Source: Haliotis cracherodii | Lineage: Eukaryota | DNA: 64,000 nucleotides | Reading direction: 5' to 3' | Assembly: GCF_022045235.1 (NCBI RefSeq) | Contig: NW_027266308.1 | Span: forward strand, 33,790,001-33,854,000 | Shown: positions 12,244-64,000 of the stretch, in pieces | How positions within the stretch are numbered: the first letter of the stretch is position 1 | Layout: each line of letters begins with the position of its first letter | The notes under the pieces: model-generated | What the model was told of the DNA's origin: nothing | The model's input: the letters and a program-made list of their open reading frames with translations, nothing else | Database searches by the model: none | Program-made: the position numbers and the translations under genes

Positions 12244-15200
12244 CGACACACCACAAACNNNNNNNNNNNNNNNNNNNNNNNNNNNNNNNNNNNNNNNNNN
12301 NNNNNNNNNNNNNNNNNNNNNNNNNNNNNNNNNNNNNNNNNNNNNNNNNNNNNNNNNNNNNNNNNNNNNNNNNNNNNNNNNNNNNNNNNNNNNNNNNNNN
12401 NNNNNNNNNNNNNNNNNNNNNNNNNNNNNNNNNNNNNNNNNNNNNNNNNNNNNNNNNNNNNNNNCTGGCCAGTTCTAAGCCCACCCATCATATTGGTGAC
12501 CCTAACTACTCCTTAGTGCATTCCATACTACTTACAATACACCTGTAGGGATTCCAGGTAAGAACATAGGTCCCCAACCTGTGCTAGTTGTAAGAGATGA
12601 ATGAATTAATGGTTAGGCTCAGTGACTTGGTGACATGGTTGATTGCCTGTCACCGTATCCTAATTGCATGGATCGTTGTCCATGTTTACTGGATTGTCTT
12701 GTCCATACTCGATTATTTACAGACCTCCTTCATATAGCTGGCATATTGCTGAGTGCGGCTTTAAACTTCCAATATTGAATTTTCTACTTGTTTGTATTTT
12801 GTTCCAGCAAAGTGTCATCAGTTATCTTGCTGTTTTACTGAAGGAAGAAAAATCCGGAAAGTTAAAAACTTTGTATCCATTATTTTCGGTAAGTTGATCA
12901 CATTCATGGGAGACACAATGACTAGACTGAATGTATCTACATAGGATTCAGCCTGGAGTACTGGCTAACTGGACCAACTGGTCTGGGGATGACGTCATGG
13001 GTTCACCCTTATGATCACCCACGTTCTATCCAGAGATACACCTCTACAAAAACTTGGGATATCCAATTAAGGGGTTGCTGGGGTAGCCCAGTCGTCAATG
13101 TGTTTGCTCATCATGCTGAAGGGCCAGGTTCAATTTCCAATATGAGTACAATGTATGACGCCCATTTCTGGTTGTTTCACAATTTTATTTGCCGAGAAAT
13201 AAGTGGTGTTGGTTCTTGCTTGCTCAACTTCCAATCATATTTCAGACTATTGCATTTTTCTGTTGGAACTTCACCATAAAAGTAAACATCTTTTTTTCCT
13301 GTTTTGCCAAGCTCTTACATGTTTAAGTGAAAATATATGACTTTGTAGGAATGGTCACCGCAAGTTCATTACTGAAAACTAAACAATCAAATTCTCCTGG
13401 TCGGATATGGTTTATTGCAATCATAAATGTTGTCAGTATTCAAGAAAAGACTTGAGTAGTATACAGAATTATGTCTTTATATCCAATATACAGTCAGTAT
13501 CTCTTTCACACTTCAACACCCTTCTTGAGATTCTACTGGCAATACAATGCATTGTTATACACACTTAATGATAGATACCTTAAATATTCAGCTTTTACAA
13601 ACATTCAATGTGCATCAACATTTCCTGGGCACTGGCTAGAAGTATTATTCAATAACTTTAAATCATCTTTCAGTATGGAAAATGTTTCCATGTTTTTCAC
13701 AACATATCTTGTATGCAGACTTTTCTCAAATATGAATCATCAAATTAATCACTTCACAATACAGTCAAGTCTGTAAATACATATGAACATGAATATCATG
13801 ATATGTTAACTATTAATGTGTAGTTTGATGTTTGTTAAAGGGGAAGTGTACACGCAAAAATCACTTTCTTTCTTTTTCTTAACAAAACGCAATTTTAGAA
13901 TTAGTTAGTATCTGTGTTTGAAAATATACACTCATTTTTTTTCACAGTGAAAGTAGGAAGCTCACAATAGTGTGAAAGTGATATGCCGTTATGAGGCCTT
14001 CGTTTTACGAGCGAAATAGGCCTGAGTTATCCCCCTTAGATTATGACGTAATTGGTGCCAATTCAACTGGGTCCCTGTCTATCCTCAACGCAAAAGATAT
14101 CAAGAACCAGTTTGCGGTAAAACAACATGGTCTACGACACACTCCGGCGCAGTGGTGACTCAGCATAACACAATTCTGGCTGGCATCTGAGATGCTAGAA
14201 TCACAAAACTGTACCTACACCACGTGAAGCGGCTCTAACAAAGCATGATGATGTCATAATGTTTATCAATTGGCACCAATGACGTCATATTGCAAGGGAC
14301 ATAAGCTATGGTGTTTTTGTTATGGAAATAGAACATTTGGTAAATGTGAAAAATATAAATCGTTTTAGTGCAAAAAATATGTTAATTAAATATGATGTTT
14401 TTATATTTTTGTCTATGACACTTCTATGTTACCGGTAACACTTTTAATGTGGAAAAAGTACAAGAAAAAAAGGTTCATTTCCGTGTGAACTTGCCCTTTA
14501 AAGTTGGTAATCTATGTGCCAGTGTGACCAGCGTCTGTAGCTCCACTTGGTCCTTGAATACAGATCTGTAGGAGGCATACTGACATGACTTGGCTGTGCT
14601 CATACAATGGCTAGACCACTTTGTAGTTGAGCTTCAGTTACTTTATAGAGAGTTGACACCACTTTGAACAGTATTTTAGTTACATCACTCCATGTCTTGT
14701 TTCATCATCATGTTGACCAGGAAGGACAGTGATGGGATGCAGGTCTTAAATGTTCACCACTAAACCAAGAATCATATTCATAATTATCATAGGTCACATT
14801 TGGGATTCAAACCCAAAACCATACTCTCTGGCCACCCCCGGGACCACCTCTGTCTGTGGTGAAGCGCAGCACCTCAGGTTACTATGCCAACCATACCACC
14901 CGTAGCCAAGGTATCTTTAATATTACACTCTTCAGTAGTAACCTTGTAACAAACCAGGGATTTACCTGGGGTATTTATTTTGGTGGTCCAGGGAACTCAC
15001 AACCTTTAATTACAGTACCAGTTAGAAAACATGGGATTCCCATTGAATTGACAAATATTGAAGATAACAATCTTATTTCAAACAAAGCAGCTTAATTCCT
15101 TGCTTGTTCTCGTCTTATTTAATATGTAAATTGTAATTTGATGTACAAGTTGAGACTCATGATTGTTTGAATCTGAAGACATACTTGAACTTTCCCTTTC

Positions 15201-34600: not shown

Positions 34601-36552
34601 TATTTGCATAAAGTACACAACAAAGGATTGGATGAGTACGTGTCTAGCCACATTTACACATTCCATTCATATGCCGGAAGATAATAACCAATGGGTAATC
34701 TATTCAATATTATCCCATTGAAAAGTCGGTTCTTGTTACTTTTTAGCCTGTCAAGCGAACCCTTTATCCACGTAGCTACCCAACCGCAACACTTCACTAC
34801 AATGTCATTGTGCATGGTGTAAGCAGGAGTGGAAATATGTGCAGGGTCGGAATAACATATTGCAGCTAAATCAACCGGGCTTGTATTAATAATATACATC
34901 GGTTTAAATGATGGTACCAGCTGTTGTGATATCCCATGTAAAACTTTTTAAACTTTTAAAGAGCCATTTATCGCGTATTCACTACACAAATGAAAGCGTG
35001 TATTAGGTAACATTGTCAACAGGAACCGCTGTGAAGACATTGAGCTCATGCATATTAAATGCATGTGTAGCTCCCATTTATGTTAATACCTCTCTGAAAC
35101 GAAAGTGTTTGAAAGGGCAAAACGTAAATATTTATATTACTTTCTTTTCTTCCTATTTGACTTATTGTTGTGAAAATGGGGATGCATTTGCATGAGAATA
35201 AAATGTTTTAAACTTAAACTCAAACACTGTAGCTAATATCAAGTTTGAACCAAATAACTATTGATATGTCGAGTGAAGATCCATAACTTGGGGGTACGAA
35301 CAAAAGAAAAAAACACCTTTCCATGTTCATAAGAAATCTCTGCCAAAAACATGAACAACAGCCAGGCAAGAGATCGCAAATACACTATCGTCACTTAACT
35401 TGACTCTTAAAAAAAGACTCGTGAAGGTCCGGGTCAGAAATGGTCTTGAGCATCCCATGCTTGTCGTAAGAGGCGACTAACGGGATCGGGTGGTCAGGCT
35501 CGCTGACTTGGTTGATGCATGGCATCGTATCCCAATTGCGTGGATCGATGCTCATGATATCAATCACTGGATTATCTGGTCCAGACTCGATTATTCAAAT
35601 ACTACTAATTTGTATCCTGTATATTGTATCATTAAACGCCCGTGTAGTTGTATATAGGTTCGGCTTTGGCACTTATGGTAGAAGTGTAGTGGTAGTGGAG
35701 ACAGCAAGAGGCAAACGTGAAATTTTGTTAACTCTGTTAAATCAGCAATATGCTGTAATGGTACTCGGCGTCGGTTCTACTTACGGATACCCTCGACATG
35801 TATTCGAGGGTCACAGGTATTCGAGATAACGAGGTTTCACTGTCGTTAACAGTGGGGGTACCATACTTTAACATAGACCTACGATCGCGTTGTGGTCCAT
35901 GTTTTATTTGTCCACGGTATCGAAAAACTGCGATGTTTTCAGTTATGATATAAAGCCGAACTTAATACGCCGATACATATCTTTCTACATTAACATTACA
36001 TATCTTAAGTTCAAGTATCTTGATTCATGCATTACGTCAGAGGGAAACAATACATCAAAGAATTCTATGGTGATTTCCCATCCATCGGTCATCCCTATGT
36101 ACAGCCAAATATCGTGTCGGTATGTCGTTAATATGAACATTACGCCTTTACACATCTCAAGAGAAACAACAATAACCTACAAGAGACAAGTAGGCGGCAC
36201 TGGTGTCAGAACGTGGACAAACGAGAGTGAAGATGTCATGCAAATGACATATGACAAGCGGTCGTTGATCGAGCAAGCCCCTTGTGTATTCGCGTCAACC
36301 TTTGAAGACAAATATTATACATCAACATACCATTCGTGTCACCTGAACAACGAACAGAAGCACAGAGGATATGGTTTATACTTACAATAAAGTACGTTGG
36401 GGGCGGATCACAACGCTCACCGTGTAGGTTGAGTTGACGTTTAGTTTAATAGTGTTGCAGACGGAAAACCTCTGCCCGTCCTGCTTCTGATACACCGGTT
36501 CATCCTTCGGTTGCTTGGTGAACGCCAAGAATACTTTGAAGTTACTCGCCAT
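28633..36552 (-). CDS. CNRIP1: CB1 cannabinoid receptor-interacting protein 1 homolog (CRIP1a), 161 aa
   Basis: Exons 36552-36386, 29651-29498, 28797-28633, GT-AG and in frame. MASNFKVFLAFTKQPKDEPVYQKQDGQRFSVCNTIKLNVNSTYTVSVVIRP...LQCKFYTEGETKHCHWGQPLHNIEYEC matches the CRIP1a motifs PVFYKVDGQRF..TIKL and KFY....HCQWG....IEYEC. Absent from the supplied ORF track. Confidence 0.93.
31219..31480 (+). mobile_element. Short retroposon family A with TSD
   Basis: GACC.GTGAAGATCCGG...GCTGGAATATTGCAGAGTGCGGCGTAAAACAACAAAC, flanked by aaagcataga repeats. Confidence 0.85.
32767..33041 (+). mobile_element. tRNA-headed SINE family C (V-domain/RUDI-like)
   Basis: A-box-like TGGCCCAGTCGTCTAAGGCG, B box GGTTCGAATCC, V-domain-like CCCGTGCTCGTGGGTTTC...TTTCCTCC, tail GATATAACTGGAATACTGTTAAAAGCGGCGTTAAAC; 13-bp TSD tcaacaaaattac. 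Confidence 0.8.
33198..33455 (+). mobile_element. Short retroposon family A
   Basis: Full head and (CAAA)n tail, flanked by aacaatc(a/t)tt. Confidence 0.85.
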
Positions 36553-42209: not shown

Positions 42210-42872
42210 CCATTCTAACCCAGAATCCCCATGGTACGACCAGCATAGTTTGCTGGGGACCTATTCTAACCCAGAATCCCAACGGTACGACCAGCACAGA
42301 TTGCTTGGGACAAATTCTAACCCAGAATCCCCAATGTACGACCAGCACAGATTGATGGGGACCTATTCTATCCCAGAATCCCCAAGGTACGACCAGCACA
42401 GATTTCTGGGGACCTATTCAAATCCAGAATCCCCAAGGTACAACCAGCATAGATTGCTGGGGACCTATTCTAATCCAGAATTCCCAAGGTACAACCAGCA
42501 CAGATTGCTGGGGACCTATTCTAATCCAGAATCCCCAATGTACGACCAGCACAGATTGCTGGGGACCTATTCTATCCCAGAATCCCCATGGTGCGACCAG
42601 CACAGATTGCTTGGGACCTATTCTAATCCTGAATCCCCAAGGTACAACCAGCATAGTTTGCTGGGGACCTATTCTAACCCAGAATCCCAACGGTACGACC
42701 AGCATAGATTGCTGGGGACAAATTCTAACCCAGAATCCCCATGGTACGACCAGCACAGATTGCTGGGGACCTATTCTATCCCAGAATCCCCAAGGTACGA
42801 CCAGCCCAGATTGCTGGGGACCTATTCTAATCCAGAATCCCTAAGATACAACCAGCATAGATTGACTAACCC
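42210..42872. repeat. 51-bp tandem repeat (~13 units) derived from the family-A head
   Basis: Unit TATTCTAACCCAGAATCCCCA(T/A)GGTACGACCAGCACAGATTGCTGGGGACC; gives the 17-aa periodic ORF 42061-42939. Confidence 0.95.
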
Positions 42873-44526: not shown

Positions 44527-52484
<7,958 letters not shown>

Positions 52485-52768: not shown

Positions 52769-55700
52769 ATGGCAATTTCAGGAGCCAGGGCAAGACATGT
52801 ATTTTTGACAGGCACACCAGGTATATAAAAGGTTATTAAAATGGGGTCTCATGAAAAATGTGACATATTTGAGGGGGCCATGAAATGGGGGGAGTGAGAA
52901 GGTGTGTGCGGAGGAGGGGCCCAGGGTGGGGACAAAACGTGTAAACATGTTTTGCCGATATGCAAAATAAGCGATTTAAGAGAACCGTTTGCTTTCTTCA
53001 TATTGAATTGCATATTCAAACTTTAAGGTTTAAAAAAAATGCCAGACAGGCCCCTTAGAAAACTATAGCCCACGGGATAGCAGGCTGGCAGCAATTTCGA
53101 ATACTGATGTTGAAGTGATTGTCCGGCACAGCGATTTCCTCCAATATTGCAGTTTATCATCACTTGACCTCTAATTAGTCGCACATACATTGAATTGATC
53201 ATATGTAAAGGTTCAAAATCAACTGAAACTCTGCACACTCACCATGCATGTCATCATATCCCAGTTATGTAGATCTATGCTCATGGTGTCAATCACTGGA
53301 TTGTCTGGTTATCTGCCATCATAGAGGTGGAATATTGCTGAGTGTGGTGTTAAAAAACAAGCAAACAAATAATGGACAGTGTCATTCAGTTGGTGTTGTA
53401 TGTGTCAAACAGTTAGTTATGTCAAATTGTTTCACAGGCACATTCAAGCACTACACGACAGTGTTTAACTATTTTTTTATACAGGTATCTTTGAACTCAA
53501 ATTTAATTAACTCACCAAAATAACCCAAAATAGAACCTGGACAGCATTAATTTTAACCTTTGAGAACTTGAACATGTTGAACTCAGTCTATCATAAAACA
53601 CCACCACTTCCTACTCCCCTGATGTTTTGTTGTTCGTTGTTTGTTATTCTTCATCGAGAGCAATGTTATGAGTTTAGATTTGAATAGGATTAGATATGAG
53701 GTGCTGGCTTCTAAACTATGACTTTGCAACATTTCATAAAAGTTACGTGTTTTGTTATGCTCCATAGGGATTGGCAAGACCACCTTAATTCACAAGGCCT
53801 GTCAATCTCTGAATGAAGCAGGACTTCTTACTCAAGGCTTCTACACAGAAGAGGTCCGAGTTAATGGCAGGAGAACCGGTTTTGATGTCGTTACATTAAA
53901 TGGTAGAAGAGGACCCCTTGCCCGAGTCAGGTAGGCTGCTATTTCACTGTTAGGATGGATATATATTTGTTTTTGAGTACTTCTGCAAATAAGCTGAACC
54001 ACAATACAAAAGGAAATCGTCAAACTGCTGTCCTTTTTCATGCTGGGACTTAGAATAATCAAAGCATAAAATAATCTTGCAGTGAGCAGTGTGACACTTT
54101 CTCTGGGCGAAGAAGGGAGTACAGAGTGGGCCAGTATTCTGTGGACCTGCAGTCATTTGAACAAACAGCCATGCCTACCATCAACACCAGGGTGAGTTGA
54201 GGAGCTGGGAAACAGCTTCAGGAGTCTTGGGCTTCCAGGTTAGAGTAGGAATGAGATGACATGATGAAGTGTCACACATACCATGGGGTGTCAGTGGGTC
54301 ACAGTGACCCTTGAGTGAAGTGTCACACATACCATGGGGTGTCAGTGGGTCACAGTGACCCTTGAGTGAAGTGTCACACATACCATGGGGTGTCAGTGGG
54401 TCACAGTGACCCTTGAGTGAAGTGTTCAACCAGGTGATGAAGTACATGTGGTAAGAAGATGAATAAGAAGATTATATGAGAATAAGAATGAAACTATCCC
54501 ACACACTGTATATGTTTACTGATTGCATAAAGCAATATAACTTCTACAAGATCTTATTAAATTAATGTCATGCCACTTCTAAAAGATCTTATCAGTAATG
54601 TCAATTCCATCATCAGCATTATCACATGCATTTGTAGTCATCATCTGTTCACAGTCTAAGAATGATTCCTGGAACTATTGATCTAGTATGACAACATGTG
54701 TCAACTGCCAGTAGTCCCATGAGGGAATTATTATTTGAAACATACAAAATGTTATTTGAAGCATTAGCGGAGTCATCATGAGACCCGTGAAGATCCGGGG
54801 TAGAATAGGTCTTCAGCAACCTATGCTTGCTGTGAAAGGCGACTATGCTTGTCATAAGAGGCGACTAACGGGAATCGGGTGGTCAGATTTGCTGACTTGG
54901 TTGATGCATGGCATCTTATTCCAATAGCGTGGATCAATGCTCATGATGTCAATCATTGGATTGTCTTGTCCAGACTCCATTATTTACAGACTGCCGTCAT
55001 ATAGCTGGAATATTGCTGGAGTGCAGCTTAAAACAACAAACAAACAAACAAACATGTCATGATGGTATGTCAGCATAATTTGTACACTGAGTCAGGTTAA
55101 TACCAGATAGGTGAGTATTTTAAGGTTTAGTTAGGTGCTGTAATGAATTATTCCTCAGCTGGAACCATCACATTCCCCATTGTTTCCATCCTCTGTATCT
55201 CCAGGGCTCACATTCGGTAAACCTACACTAACCCCTGGATCCATCCCGTGGCTCTCACCATCTCAAATTACCCGTCCTTGATTTCTATTTGCCAATTTGC
55301 TTGGCTACACTACTAGGTCTAACATACCAATCAGAATACGAGTTACAAACCATCCTCAATGTTGGGTTGGCAATATCAACAACATGGCGGCCAGTCTCAT
55401 TAATTCTGATCGAGTTTGCGAGAACTTCAACATTGAAAAACTGACTGACACGCAAAAGAAAGCTCTAAAAATCTTATTGTTGAAAAGGATGCCATCATGT
55501 CCATTTGAACTGACAGTGGCATTAGTACCCCATTACCCTTTCCTTTGTGTCAACGTTCGATTGGTCCATAAAATGTTAAGGAAAATCAAGTGCCGCTAAT
55601 TTCAGATCGCGAGAACCATGGGAATGGATCCAGAGGTTCGTGTAGGTTTACCGAATTGCGAAGCCTGGAGATTTAGAGGATGCAGTGTTTCATGCCTAGT

Positions 55701-56977
55701 GAACATATCATTCCAGAGCGTTAGTCCAGGACAGGAACCAGTGTTTGTAATTGATGAGATCGGGAAGATGGAGCTGTTTAGTCAGTCATTTGTCCAGTCA
55801 GTGAGGGGCATCCTGGATAATCCCATGACAACTGTGCTGGCAACTATTCCAGTCTCCAGGGGAAAACCGATCTCATTTGTGGAGGAAGTGCGCAATAGAA
55901 AAGATGCAGTTGTCTACACGGTATACAGCTACAATATTTCATAACTTATTTGAGCAGTGGTATAGCTTAATGGCTGCTGGAATGTTGCTACAAACGATCA
56001 ACATATAGCAGATCAAAGGTCATATGCCAAGTCGTGCTTCTTTTCAAATGATAACCAAAGCTCCAGATATTTGATCCAGGAGTCTGATTTTGACTGGGTA
56101 TCCACAAGGTTTAATGGGTATTCAAAATAAATTTACTCACCTGTATAACGACATTTGGGTACTTTAATCTGTTTCGTAAATCATTTAAAACTCAATGAAT
56201 AGTAGTATTCCCATCTGCGTCTGCTTGCAGCTCCCTCTCCGGGAAGCCATCTTTGTTTGCCAAACCTAGCATTGTATGAAAGGTGCTATGTTTTTAATCA
56301 TTTAGGATACATTAATTAGGCACAGTGTGCTTTTCAATTGAAATCTATCGGTATTCAAGTTTGTTTGTCGCCCAATCTTTTGTAAACATAACTGTCAGTA
56401 CCAGTAAGTGAATTTCGCGATCGGCTGAGACGCAATCATTTTATGTAACTGTTGTGATGTACACAATCGTTTTATCTAATAGTTGTAACATATGTATTAG
56501 TTTTATTTCAATGGCATATTTATAGTTTCTGTTGAGTATTTGATACACTAGGAATTGATTTGTCTGCACATTTCAGTTTATTTGATGTATATTTTATGCA
56601 ACTACCCAGCTTATCTCGAGCTCTGGATAACTTTAAAAAACACCTCTGCTGGTCCTTAGAGGTGACTAAATGGATTAGGTGGTCTGGCACGGTGACTTGC
56701 ATCCATCATATCAGACACAGGATTATTTATTTACCACCATATCTCTAGAATCTTGTAAGTGTGGCGTACAACAAACACACAAACACACACACAAGACACT
56801 TATTCTCTCTATCGCTCACATGCAGTCACACATTTGAACACGCACCCATATCCCGTCTGAGCACAGAGTGAAGAAGAGTTCTGGTTGTGGTTTCAGGTAA
56901 CAAGGGAAAACAGAGACAACATTCTGAAGGAAATTGTGGAGTCGGTGAAGTGTTCAGTGGAGACCTTCAACTCTTGA
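52769..56977 (+). CDS. NTPCR: Cancer-related nucleoside-triphosphatase (THEP1/NTPase_1 family), 202 aa
   Basis: Exons 52769-52820, 53768-53930, 54083-54191, 55717-55920, 56897-56977. Walker A HVFLTGTPGIGKTT, GFYTEEVR..GRRTGFDVVTL, RVGQYSVD, Walker B VIDEIGKMELFS, C-terminal VTRENRD. Confidence 0.95.
54265..54425. repeat. 51-bp tandem repeat x3 in NTPCR intron 3
   Basis: Identical units GAAGTGTCACACATACCATGGGGTGTCAGTGGGTCACAGTGACCCTTGAGT. Confidence 0.95.
54782..55053 (+). mobile_element. Short retroposon family A in NTPCR intron 3
   Basis: Full head, internal ~22-bp duplication, (CAAA)n tail. Confidence 0.85.
55187..55682. mobile_element. Non-autonomous DNA transposon M3
   Basis: TIRs CATCCTCT.TATCTCCAGG...CCTGGAGATTTAGAGGATG; TSD cattgtttc/cagtgtttc. 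Confidence 0.82.
56056..56625. mobile_element. MITE related to 8037-8545
   Basis: CAAAGCTCCAGATA...TTATCTCGAGCTCTG with gataac on both flanks. Confidence 0.65.
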
Positions 56978-57602
56978 CATAATGGGATGTTGAGACCTCC
57001 AGATCGTGACACAATGTCATGTGGATGCCTACAGCTCGTGACACAATGTGATGTGGAGACCTCGAGATCGTGACACAATGTCATGTGGATGCCTACAGCT
57101 TGTGACACAATGTCATGTGGATCGATCCGAGACCTCCAGATTGTGACACAATGTGATTTGGGACCTCCAGATTGTGACACAATGTGAGGCCTACAGCTCG
57201 TGACACAATGTGATTTGGGACCTCCAGATTGTGACACAATGTGATGTGGAGACCTCCAGATTGTGACACAATGTCATGTGGAAGCCTACAGCTTGTGACA
57301 CAATGTCATGTGGATCGATCCGAGACCTCCAAATTGTGACACAATGTGATTTCTGACCTCCAGATTGTGACACAATGTGATGTGGAGACCTCCAGATTGT
57401 GACACAATGTGATTTGGGACCTCCAGATTGTGACACAATGCGATTTTGGACCTCCAGATTGTGACACAATGTGATTTTGGACCTCCAGATTGTGACACAA
57501 TGGGATGTGGAGACCTCCAGATTGTGACACAATGTGATGTGGATGCCTACAGCTCGTGACACAATGTGATGTGGATGCCTACAGCTCGTGACACAATGTG
57601 AT
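56957..57602. repeat. ~30-38-bp minisatellite in the NTPCR 3' UTR
   Basis: Units built on GACCTCCAGATTGTGACACAATGTGA / GCCTACAGCTCGTGACACAATGT, ~20 copies. Confidence 0.95.
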
Positions 57603-60599: not shown

Positions 60600-63020
60600 C
60601 AGTTGGGACTCCAGTTCAGAGTATATCCCCAGTACATCATGCTTATCTCTGTTGGGATTCCGGTTCAGAGTATATCCCCAGTACGTCATGCTTGTCTCTG
60701 TTGGGATTGCGGTTCAGAGTAAATCCCCACTACGTCAGGCTTGTCTCTGTTGGGATTGCGGTTCAGAGTAAATCCTCAGTACATCATGCTTGTCTCTGTT
60801 GGGATTGCGGTTCAGAGTAAATCCTCAGTACGTCATGCTTGTCTCTGTTTGGATTCCAGTTCAGAGTATATCCCCAGTATGTCATGCTTGTCTCTGGGAT
60901 TCCGGTTCAGAGTATATCCCCACTACGGCAGGCTTGTCTCTGTTGGGATTCCGGTTCAGAGTATATCCCCAGTATGTCATGCTTGTCTCTGTTGGGATTC
61001 CGGTTCAGAGTATATCCCCACTACGGCAGGCTTGTCTCTGTTGGGATTGCGGTTCAGAGTATATCCCTACTATGTCATGCTTGTCTCTGTTGGGATTCCG
61101 GTTCAGAGTATATCCCCTCTATGTCATGCTTGTCTCTGTTGGGATTCCGGTTCAGAGTATATTTCCACTATGTCATGCTTGTCTCTGTTGGGATTCCGGT
61201 TCAGAGTATATCCCCTCTACGTCATGCTTGTCTCTGTTGGGATTCCGGTTCAGAGTATATTTCCACTACGTCATGCTTGTCTCTGTTGGGATTCCGGTTC
61301 AGAGTATATCCCCTCTACGTCATGCTTGTCTCTGTTGGGATTCCGGTTCAGAGTATATATATCCCCAGTATGTCATGATTGTCTCTGTTGGGATTCCGGT
61401 TCAGAGTATATATATCCCCAGTACGTCATGCTTGTCTCTGTTGGGATTCCGGTGGAGATTATATCCCCAGTATGTCATGCTTGTCTCTGTTGGGATTCCG
61501 GTATATCCCCAGTACGTTATGCTTGTCTCTGTTGGGATTCCGGTTCAGAGTATATTTCCACTACGTCATGCTTGTCTCTGTTGGGATTCCGGTTCAGAGT
61601 ATATCCCCTCTACGTCATGCTTGTCTCTGTTGGGATTCCGGTTCAGAGTATATTTCCACTACGTCATGCTTGTCTCTGTTGGGATTCCGGTTCAGAGTAT
61701 ATCCCCTCTACGTCATGCTTGTCTCTGTTGGGATTCCGGTTCAGAGTATATATATCCCCAGTATGTCATGATTGTCTCTGTTGGGATTCCGGTTCAGAGT
61801 ATATATATCCCCAGTACGTCATGCTTGTCTCTGTTGGGATTCCGGTGGAGATTATATCCCCAGTATGTCATGCTTGTCTCTGTTGGGATTTCGGTATATC
61901 CCCAGTACGTCATGCTTGTCTCTGTTGGGATTCCAGTTCAGAGCATATCCCCAGTATGTCATGCTTGTCTCTGTTGGGATTCCGGTTCAGAGTATATTTC
62001 CAGTATGTCATGCTTGTCTCTGTTGGGATTCCGGTATATCCCCAATACGTCATGCTTGTCTCTGTTGGGATTCCGATTCAGAGTATATCCCCAGTATGTC
62101 ATGCTTGTCTCTGTTGGGATTCCGGTTCAGAGTATATCCCCAGTATGTCATGCTTGTCTCTGTTGGGATTCCGGTATATCCCCAGTATGTCATGCTTGTC
62201 TCTGTTGGGATTCCGATTCAGAGTATATCCCCAGTATGTCATGCTTGTCTCTGTTGGAATTCCGGTATATCCCCAGTACATCATGCTTGTCTCTGTTGGA
62301 ATTCCGATTCAGAGTATATCCCCAGTACGTCATGCTTGTCTCTGTTGGAATTCCGGTATATCCCCAGTACGTCATGCTTGTCTCTGTTGGAATTCCGATT
62401 CAGAGTATATTCCCAATACGTCATGCTTGTCTCTGTTGGAATTCCGATTCAGAGTATATCCCCAGTACGTCATGCTTGTCTCTGTTGGAATTCCGGTATA
62501 TCCCCAGTACGTCATGCTTGTCTCTGTTGGAATTCCGATTCAGAGTATATTCCCAATACGTCATGCTTGTCTCTGTTGGGATTCCGGTTCAGAGTATATC
62601 CCCAGTATGTCATGCTTGTCTCTGTTGGGATTCCGGTATATCCCCAATACGTCATGCTTGTCTCTGTTGGGATTCCGATTCAGAGTATATCCCCAGTATG
62701 TCATGCTTGTCTCTGTTGGGATTCCGGTATATCCCCAATACGTCATGCTTGTCTCTGTTGGGATTCCGATTCAGAGTATATCCCCAGTACGTCATGCTTG
62801 TCTCTGTTGGGATTCCGGTATATCCCCAGTATGTCATGCTTGTCTCTGTTGGGATTCCGATTCAGAGTATATCCCCAGTACGTCATGCTTGTCTCTGTTG
62901 GAATTCCGGTATAGGCCCAGTAAGTCATACTTGTCTCTGTTGGGATTCCGGTTCAGAGTATATCCCCTCTACGTCATGCTTGTCTCTGTTGGGATTCTAG
63001 TTCAGAGTATATTTCCAGTA
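60600..63020. repeat. 2.4-kb satellite of 49-bp units with 42-bp deletion variants
   Basis: Unit TTGTCTCTGTTGGGATTCCGGTTCAGAGTATATCCCCAGTACGTCATGC; ~50 copies. Confidence 0.97.
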
Positions 63021-64000
63021 CAGTTTACTTGTCATAAGATCCGTTTCAATGAAGATCAGTTGTCATAACATCTCGTCATACCCTGTTTATGGTTTCAGTT
63101 TCTGGATTGCTTCAGCCATACTTGATAATGGACAGGCCGTTATGAGACAGCTGGATATTTTGGTTGGTTGGTTTGTTGTTTAACGCCGCACTCAGCAATA
63201 TTCCAGCTATATGACAGCGGTCTGTAAATAATCGAGTCTGGACCAGACATCCAGTGATTAATATGAGCATCGATCCATGCAAATGGGATCAATGACATGC
63301 ATCAAGCAAGTCGGCGATCCTGACCACCCAAACACGTTAGTCGCCTCTTACAACAAGCATAGTCGCCTTTTACGGCAAGCATGGGCGATGATACAGCTGG
63401 AATATTGAGGACTGTAGCAATATAATGACAGTCACTCACTCATTCTTGGCCCAGAGTCCGACTACTTCCCTTGTAGCAGTGACATTCAATAACACGAAAA
63501 CGATATAAAAAAAATAAATTCCCAAATCATCAAAATGCACCAGTTCCCTACTAGACTGATCTATATAGAAAGTTTCAACAAGAAATATTTTACTGTTTTA
63601 GAGTTCTGCTCCTGTATTGGAAAACTGCTGGCTGACAGACATGGTGATCGCCATATCTCCCCCCCCTTTTTTCAAAGGGGATAAAAATAACATTCAACAC
63701 AACATTGGAACAGACAACAGAAAATGATTTTTTATGAAAAGTATTTACCTCTTTATTTTCATGTGGAAACAAATTATTAAAACAAACAAAATGATAGCAT
63801 AACAAAAATACCATGTACACTCAAAAATGAGATTGGTCAGTACTGACCAGTTAGTTCCTCATGGAACTGTCCAGTAAATGGCACACATGAAGGCTGCAAA
63901 TACAACATTCTTGCCTCTGAGACACCAGTGCACACATGACCTCTTATTTCTGCTTTAAATGACTACAAACAGTAACACTCAACCTAGGTAGCCCCTTTGC

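Follow-up and report, generated by a model that had tools for sequence, protein, structure and literature searches.

The SINE at 54782 and its genomic setting

The repeat that starts at position 54782 of the window (the whole 64-kb stretch of Haliotis cracherodii DNA that was analysed) is a SINE copy of the LP type (54782..55053, forward strand), belonging to a duplicated-core subfamily and composed of a head, a body of unknown origin, a Nimb-like tail and an (ACAA)n end. The structured head (the LP motif; 54782..54872, forward strand; 57.9 bits with model R1) begins, as judged from 5' end statistics, at G54782, six bases before the U of loop 1. It contains a 22-nt tandem duplication (54823..54866, forward strand; units 54823-54844 and 54845-54866), which is a mark of the commonest SINE subfamily. 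The head sequence quoted in the initial annotation is real as a family consensus, from which this copy departs by the duplication and by decay (ACCT for ACCC, a decayed first core and CpG decay in the second). The tail (54999..55034, forward strand; scored on the reference copy L002) is homologous to the 3' end of RNase H-bearing LINEs of the same genome (L394-L403). A possible 9-bp target site duplication (TSD; left copy 54772..54780, right copy 55056-55064, with one mismatch) was seen by eye and is marginal, the TSD script having made no call.

An exon with an NTPase_1 domain (PF03266, E 2e-9) lies at 55690-55860 on the forward strand, about 700 bp downstream of the SINE, which probably sits in a sense-strand intron of this gene. 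A MITE-like element of ~500 bp with terminal inverted repeats of ~100 bp occupies 55187-55682 (related pieces at 45352-45818), and unrelated minisatellites are found at 44663-45223 (37 nt), 54265-54425 (51 nt) and 56957-57602 (32 nt).

The element measures ~250-270 bp and is present in the window in about 19-20 interspersed copies, in line with the ~19 first reported (24 merged BLAST hits when pieces of arrays are included). Among them, a 3'-truncated copy at 35416..35603 (forward strand) has a single intact core (the non-duplicated form), and a copy at 12540..12766 (forward strand) belongs to subfamily B (the GGGGA/TCCCC stem variant). BLAST searches of 60 sampled 10-kb stretches of the 1.18-Gb genome recovered 150 copies, 54 of them near full length, from which a genome total of about 3 x 10^5 copies is extrapolated. 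TSDs of 8-17 nt flank 35 of 65 near-full copies; in 16 of these the first base is the G of GACCCG and in 31 it falls within -3..+2, with random bases upstream. The TSDs and the LINE-type tail of the initial annotation were thus recovered, as was the lack of Pol III boxes: the SINE has neither tRNA homology nor an A box, and its one 9-nt B-box-like match falls in the body. TATA sequences 20-40 nt upstream were not enriched (2/30 vs 0-1/30 in control windows), and three small-RNA runs gave 1, 20 and 0 reads, too few to inform. Head and tail are both LINE-related, as the proposal of a bipartite LINE derivative supposed; the body (~110 nt), however, matches no LINE examined and a single parent was not found; none of the 10 long-ORF loci ends in the exact (ACAA)n tail expected of a partner.

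It is probable, judging from the described features, that the element is the published abalone LP-SINE. In the accessible part of Matetovici 2016 (PMC4758252), LP-SINEs are reported from Haliotis (255 bp), Littorina and oysters, and those of abalone (Hdi_LP, Hmi_LP) resemble our element in their non-tRNA, LINE-derived head, their ~255 bp, TSDs, LINE-related tail and tandem-repeat end. The same part states that the first ~70 bp are common to Nimb-17_LMi, I-3_DR and RTE-9_CPB, and presumes a promoter there. The head is therefore in print, as the initial annotation had allowed for, but in that text it stands without a structure, a functional test or a link to viruses. The same LP head is found on Nimb-like LINEs of this genome.

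Predicted fold of the LP motif

The head of 75 bases is a conserved RNA element, predicted to form two tandem pseudoknots around a near-invariant core. Its strands follow in the order S1, U, S2, S1', a variable loop ending in AGAAT(A/T), S2', S4, a loop (S3) and S4', after which come one base, the core hairpin, TAA and S3'. In the copy at 54782 (all on the forward strand), pseudoknot 1 comprises helix S1 (54784..54799; 54784-54787 with 54796-54799, T54788 being loop 1; covariation) and the 7-bp helix S2 (54789..54814; 54789-54795 with 54808-54814; covariation, RNAalifold), and its loop 3 ends in the conserved AGAAT(A/T) (54802..54807), before which families have a loop stretch of 6 to about 70 nt. 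A stacked helix S4 (54815..54827; 4 bp; covariation, RNAalifold) joins 54815-54818 to either 54824-54827 or, in the second repeat, 54846-54849. The loop closed by S4 (54819-54823) provides the 5' strand of S3, and the S3 3' strand (54869..54872; swap test, non-viral only) pairs with it in pseudoknot 2. The near-invariant 18-nt core (54851..54868) consists of a 4-bp hairpin with a 7-nt loop and TAA, and is altered here at one CpG. In two other families (L110, L230) loop 3 is 70 nt or longer with both pseudoknot helices still paired, and it is likewise long in L127, which was not parsed. In scallop LP heads (Fig. S2 in the accessible part of PMC4758252, compared by eye) the same core occurs with one extra base, alongside a 5' C-run/G-run and a 7-bp S2 written in different letters.

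We made use of a swap test in which strands were cut by anchors and exchanged among 23 retroelement and virus representatives (17 non-viral, 6 viral). S1, S2 and S4 were each matched by 0/20000 exchanges, while S3 reached 10/20000 in the 17 non-viral rows and was not significant in the 6 viral ones (2286/20000). When 15 non-viral representatives are aligned plainly with MAFFT, 88.6% of cells are paired (vs 73.5% when shuffled and 29-48% in slid controls) and 49 cells show both-sided changes (vs 17.7 in shuffles, 0/500); the number of pairs with a both-sided change was not significant (10 vs 8.8, 143/500). RNAalifold recovers S2, S4 and the core hairpin unaided. These figures refer to representatives chosen by eye for intactness, several of them related, with decayed rows (L263, L125, L071, L127, L077, L137, L139, L132) excluded.

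The invariance of the core is partly by design, as the search patterns demanded most of it. The core hairpin shows no covariation in the alignment because the core never varies, the searches having demanded it, and its only covariation-type support is a G-C extension in LINE heads; relaxed scans for core variants in viruses returned only chance matches (at most 20.4 bits). A fixed-length parser set against shuffles placed 9 of the 23 representatives at 0/200 and 16 at no more than 10/200, did not parse family A and failed on three (L197, L213, L263). Folded singly, copies were no better than shuffles (z -1.27; not significant in 6/7 sequences), and the evidence for the structure is hence comparative.

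The fold first proposed survives in part. Its stem GAAGATC/GGTCTTC is S2, and the pairing of the loop GGG holds upstream (1/20000 in the swap test) but not downstream (7650/20000). A CCCG/CGGG closing stem is unsupported (11938/20000), and helix S4 and the second pseudoknot were missing. The suspicion of an uncharacterised structured RNA of LINE origin, with covariation and a pseudoknot, was well founded: the Rfam comparison that had been suggested gave no match to the motif, and no description of its structure or function was found in the openly searchable papers. We conclude that the LP motif is a real, conserved and undescribed RNA fold in a known SINE.

Subfamilies, head arrays and the 5' boundary

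The GGGGA/TCCCC variant, previously regarded as satellite-derived, is rather an interspersed subfamily B (25 loci aligned). It differs from subfamily A by the two compensatory A-U to G-C changes in the stem that had been noted, which are real, and, within the 5' helix, by one change from C-G to U-A. The sightings of the variant at 12545 and 60.6 kb correspond to the subfamily B copy described above and to a tandem array (60602..63021, forward strand) of about 50 copies of a 49-nt unit, in which a subfamily-B-like head runs into a decayed core. A further array (42212..42864, reverse strand) repeats the first 51 nt of the subfamily-B head and continues into the SINE tail. Both arrays derive from subfamily B. 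Head-to-tail junctions of subfamily A gave 498 matches genome-wide; among the first 100, units span the first 34-59 nt, and most end in or beside the core hairpin. Perhaps the reverse transcriptase jumped between templates at the 5' end and so produced the head arrays. A use of the 51-nt arrays as markers of a cleavage site was ruled out by these 498 matches with many unit lengths, and a 5'-truncation hot spot at the structure is confounded by the duplication.

Five families begin at -6, counted back from loop 1, and the sequence at -7 is random in them; family E starts 1-2 nt later. The first base varies among the families that share the -6 boundary (G, A, G, C/T), and the boundary is thus fixed by distance and not by sequence. 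Exact-TSD junctions of the SINE lie at G0 in 6 of 8 cases and are mostly precise to a single base. SINE starts that fall 1-2 nt short (8/30 vs 0/27, p 0.005; vs 3/30 when longer truncations are counted, p 0.18) are only suggestive.

LINEs with and without a predicted ribozyme

The motif is carried by 6 of the 10 long-ORF LINE loci, which form one family group (APE-RT-RNase H); the first in-frame ATG of ORF1 follows it at a distance of 470-630 nt. In the ribozyme-headed LINEs the element reaches 57 nt further 5' than the LP motif, and this segment fits an HDV fold (L394-L449: P1 with a G-U at G1, P2, P3, L3, P1.1 and the J4/2 C, P4 being absent). Rfam assigns it to RF02682 at 27.5 bits (E 0.0024), below the gathering threshold of 44, and returns nothing for the LP motif in the same 301 nt. 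In 5/5 cases the alignment of the LINE 3' end to the SINE tail scores better than any of 200 shuffles. Of 30 ribozyme-headed copies picked by their sequence downstream of the core, 27 have G1 as first base, 3 begin inside the ribozyme and 0 at the motif; altogether, 0 of the 36 copies read start at the LP motif. TSDs join at G1 in 8/8 cases (25 copies examined), and genome-wide the 3' strand of the ribozyme adjoins the motif in 514 of 542 matches, the six exceptions that were read all carrying the ribozyme still.

The family (L394-L396, L400, L402, L403 and L414-L449, many of them at C2:20.9-21.75 Mb and C3:30.3-30.9 Mb) is young, has two ORFs and numbers more than 500 copies that include a 5' end, in dense and nested clusters. 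Between its subfamilies, identity is 96-100% in the 57-nt HDV-like segment as against 77-87% in ORF2. In L394-L403, ~150 nt on the 3' side of the motif are 85-98% conserved and open with a 7-bp hairpin that is common to L232, a contig of another animal.

A sister LINE group (30 loci, 20 with ORF1 homology) is devoid of the ribozyme in 29/30 cases, and the 18 of its copies that were counted (one being mis-parsed and one having a duplicated flank) are conserved from -6 and random at -7. The loci L450-L479 are older sister copies, and L475 joins the ribozyme to a sister-type core. In the ribozyme-headed LINE the core is changed by a linker G (29/30), a loop change (18/30) and a C for T (13/30). 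Sister copies share the linker G and the T-to-C change, which together extend the core hairpin by a G-C pair, and since they start at the motif edge, these changes do not switch the boundary off. The loop change is unmatched in the common form of the sisters, and thus a partial relaxation of the motif in the ribozyme-headed LINE is possible.

One and the same motif therefore defines the 5' end of elements with nothing in front of it, and does not detach the ribozyme of those that have one there. The intact Nimb-like LINE with an LP motif directly behind an HDV-like ribozyme is new here (a word search for the arrangement gave no result), and its ribozyme-plus-motif and motif-only sister lineages offer a ready natural control.

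Occurrence in viruses and other DNA

The core pattern was found in at least 120 metagenome stretches, of which the 80 read are repeats of many families from seemingly animal hosts. It is also present in 7 viral contigs, among them five distinct RNA-virus-like ones and one 212-kb DNA-virus contig. The RNA-virus assignments stem from an RdRp (L204, L213, L216) and a capsid peptidase A21 (L197/L215); L190 gave no more than a weak coat match. All five of these contigs carry the motif in the sense of the coding strand, downstream of the last stop codon by 4-99 nt and with 27-119 nt left to the contig end. Two tandem copies occupy the viral 3' UTR at L190:1-152 (reverse strand), the second being cut by the contig end. 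In the 212-kb contig (L200:4981-5057) the motif stands between two same-strand genes, 153 nt before an ATG. This contig, perhaps iridovirus-like, has BRO genes and a gene for an NAD-dependent ligase. Trained on 15 non-viral rows, a covariance model scored the viral copies at 45-68 bits and pattern-only matches in phage genes at no more than 20; phage records yielded no LP motif match. A bacterial occurrence was rejected: 7 GTDB contigs (L227-L233) look like eukaryotic contamination or chimeras, the matches being terminal on the contig, adjoining microsatellites or coming from assemblies of animal symbionts (three are both terminal and beside microsatellites).

A candidate barrier to exoribonucleases

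We reason, from sequence and comparative evidence, that the LP head is probably a passive, xrRNA-like roadblock to 5'-to-3' exoribonucleases (Xrn1/Xrn2). We infer transcription from outside, nuclease stalling, the enzyme, a ring fold and the partner LINE as parts of one scheme. Read-through host transcripts (from copies in introns or read-through regions, driven by host promoters) would supply the RNA; Xrn2 or Xrn1 would trim it back to the first base of the element and stall at the motif, whose fold would encircle the 5' end as a ring; and the RNA, being uncapped, would stay protected until the reverse transcriptase of a Nimb-like LINE copied it from the tail. In viruses, the fold would act as known xrRNAs do (PMC6299227, PMC12397905) and give rise to short subgenomic RNAs from the 3' end or shield a gene that lies downstream. 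The barrier is favoured over self-cutting because related elements keep a predicted ribozyme directly in front of the motif: self-cleavage at the motif edge, an endonuclease cut or initiation there would remove this ribozyme, and its retention argues against all three. Xrn1 requires a 5'-phosphate and is not known to attack 5'-OH ends. Since the products of HDV cleavage carry a 5'-OH (PMC3383444, accessible part), a barrier to such a nuclease would spare the ribozyme. Against the barrier count the failure of ordinary frameshift pseudoknots to stall Xrn1 and the structural differences from known xrRNAs (both given below), a loop 3 that may span 70 nt, the precise SINE junctions, a pseudoknot 2 that is unsupported in viruses and an 18-nt invariant core more typical of a catalytic or binding site. 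Moreover, a back-up barrier might give some ribozyme-LINE starts at the motif, and 0/36 were seen.

That the head might instead be a protein- or ribosome-binding RNA (a cap-independent translation enhancer or a handle for ORF2p or the RNP), with the bound protein setting the 5' boundary, we judge unlikely. The invariant core and AGAAT(A/T) would suit a binding site, translation enhancers reside in the 3' UTRs of tombus-like viruses (PMC6299227, accessible part), and the motif is kept at 82-99% identity in LINEs that already have a ribozyme (4-fold sites 41-64%), although swapping of 5' UTRs between subfamilies (L395/L400) inflates that identity. Binding alone, however, makes no end, and non-coding SINEs of several lineages keep the motif and start at its edge.

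Self-processing and internal promotion, two of the roles that the initial annotation had considered, are opposed by the HDV-like ribozyme kept upstream in all 36 LINE copies read. A new class of self-cleaving ribozyme, slow or regulated and cutting at the 5' edge, has in our estimation quite a low probability. Its size, double pseudoknot, invariant core and precise 5' end are what such an enzyme could present, many non-LTR elements are headed by ribozymes (PMC6765202), and ribozymes are found in the UTRs of linear RNA viruses (mostly 5' UTRs; PMC13725137, accessible part). The core changes of the ribozyme-headed LINE could even mark an inactivated enzyme, but two of the three are common to sisters that start at the motif. 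In addition to the 0/36 starts, cleavage would cut off the last 100-200 nt of linear viral genomes, the first base is not conserved, and head arrays show many junctions in place of one cut site. The lack of a canonical ribozyme fold, as first reported, was upheld: among the 23 representatives no nested double pseudoknot of the HDV type was found (L3 and J4/2 motifs in 2/23 each), the core motifs of hammerhead, twister and pistol occur in 0, 0 and 1 without an Rfam match, and the AGAA of the hairpin ribozyme is present in 23/23 but without a model match. The published presumption of an internal DNA promoter with transcription initiating at +1 seems very improbable to us. It draws on the 5'-terminal position of the head in SINEs, Nimb and RTE LINEs (PMC4758252, accessible part), on the precise start and on Pr77, a precedent for a promoter with an additional RNA function (PMC3383444, accessible part). 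Nevertheless, the motif occurs in RNA viruses, its variation follows base pairing, initiation at +1 would drop the upstream ribozyme, the first base can be C/T, and extra 5' bases are not G-biased.

Taken as a whole, the proposal that the LP motif represents a new class of exonuclease-blocking RNA, which takes the place of a promoter or ribozyme in forming the 5' end of animal retrotransposons, travels as a module between SINEs, LINEs of the Nimb and RTE types, RNA viruses and one large DNA virus, and is interchangeable with an HDV-like ribozyme in one LINE lineage, appears to us, from the sequence comparisons, slightly better than an even bet. If true, it would add a third route, beside internal promoters and ribozymes, to an exact 5' end of non-LTR elements; it would account for the spread of SINEs that lack Pol III boxes to roughly 10^5 copies, resolve the puzzle raised in 2016 of unrelated LINEs that have no more in common than the 70 bases at their start, and extend xrRNAs from viruses to host genomes.

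Comparison with known systems

The LINEs are judged Nimb-like (Nimb clade, I group) from their two ORFs, APE-RT-RNase H arrangement and tail homology, and the SINE TSDs are similar in length to those of Nimb-2_DR (10-15 bp; PMC4245944, accessible part). With the HDV-like ribozymes of R2, RTE and L1Tc/ingi the LP motif has in common that it defines the 5' end of promoter-less or co-transcribed elements; it differs in lacking the nested P1/P2/P3/P1.1 order and in sitting behind such a ribozyme.

Ordinary H-type frameshift pseudoknots do not stall Xrn1 (PMC10321173, accessible part). From the known xrRNA classes (class 3 of dianthovirus, polerovirus and ST9, coremin, and flavivirus classes 1 and 2) the LP motif, which belongs to none of them, differs by having no sequence in common with them (the coremin pattern occurs in 0/23 representatives), by the absence of a three-way junction or T-loop, by its two tandem H-type knots and by its presence in host retroelements. 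Known xrRNAs lie in 3' UTRs after the stop codon, in intergenic positions or in tandem (PMC6299227, accessible part), and those of class 3 stop Xrn1 at the base of P1 (PMC12397905, accessible part). The LP motif is like them in this placing, in its predicted compact, pseudoknot-dependent fold and in a boundary at the base of the first helix.
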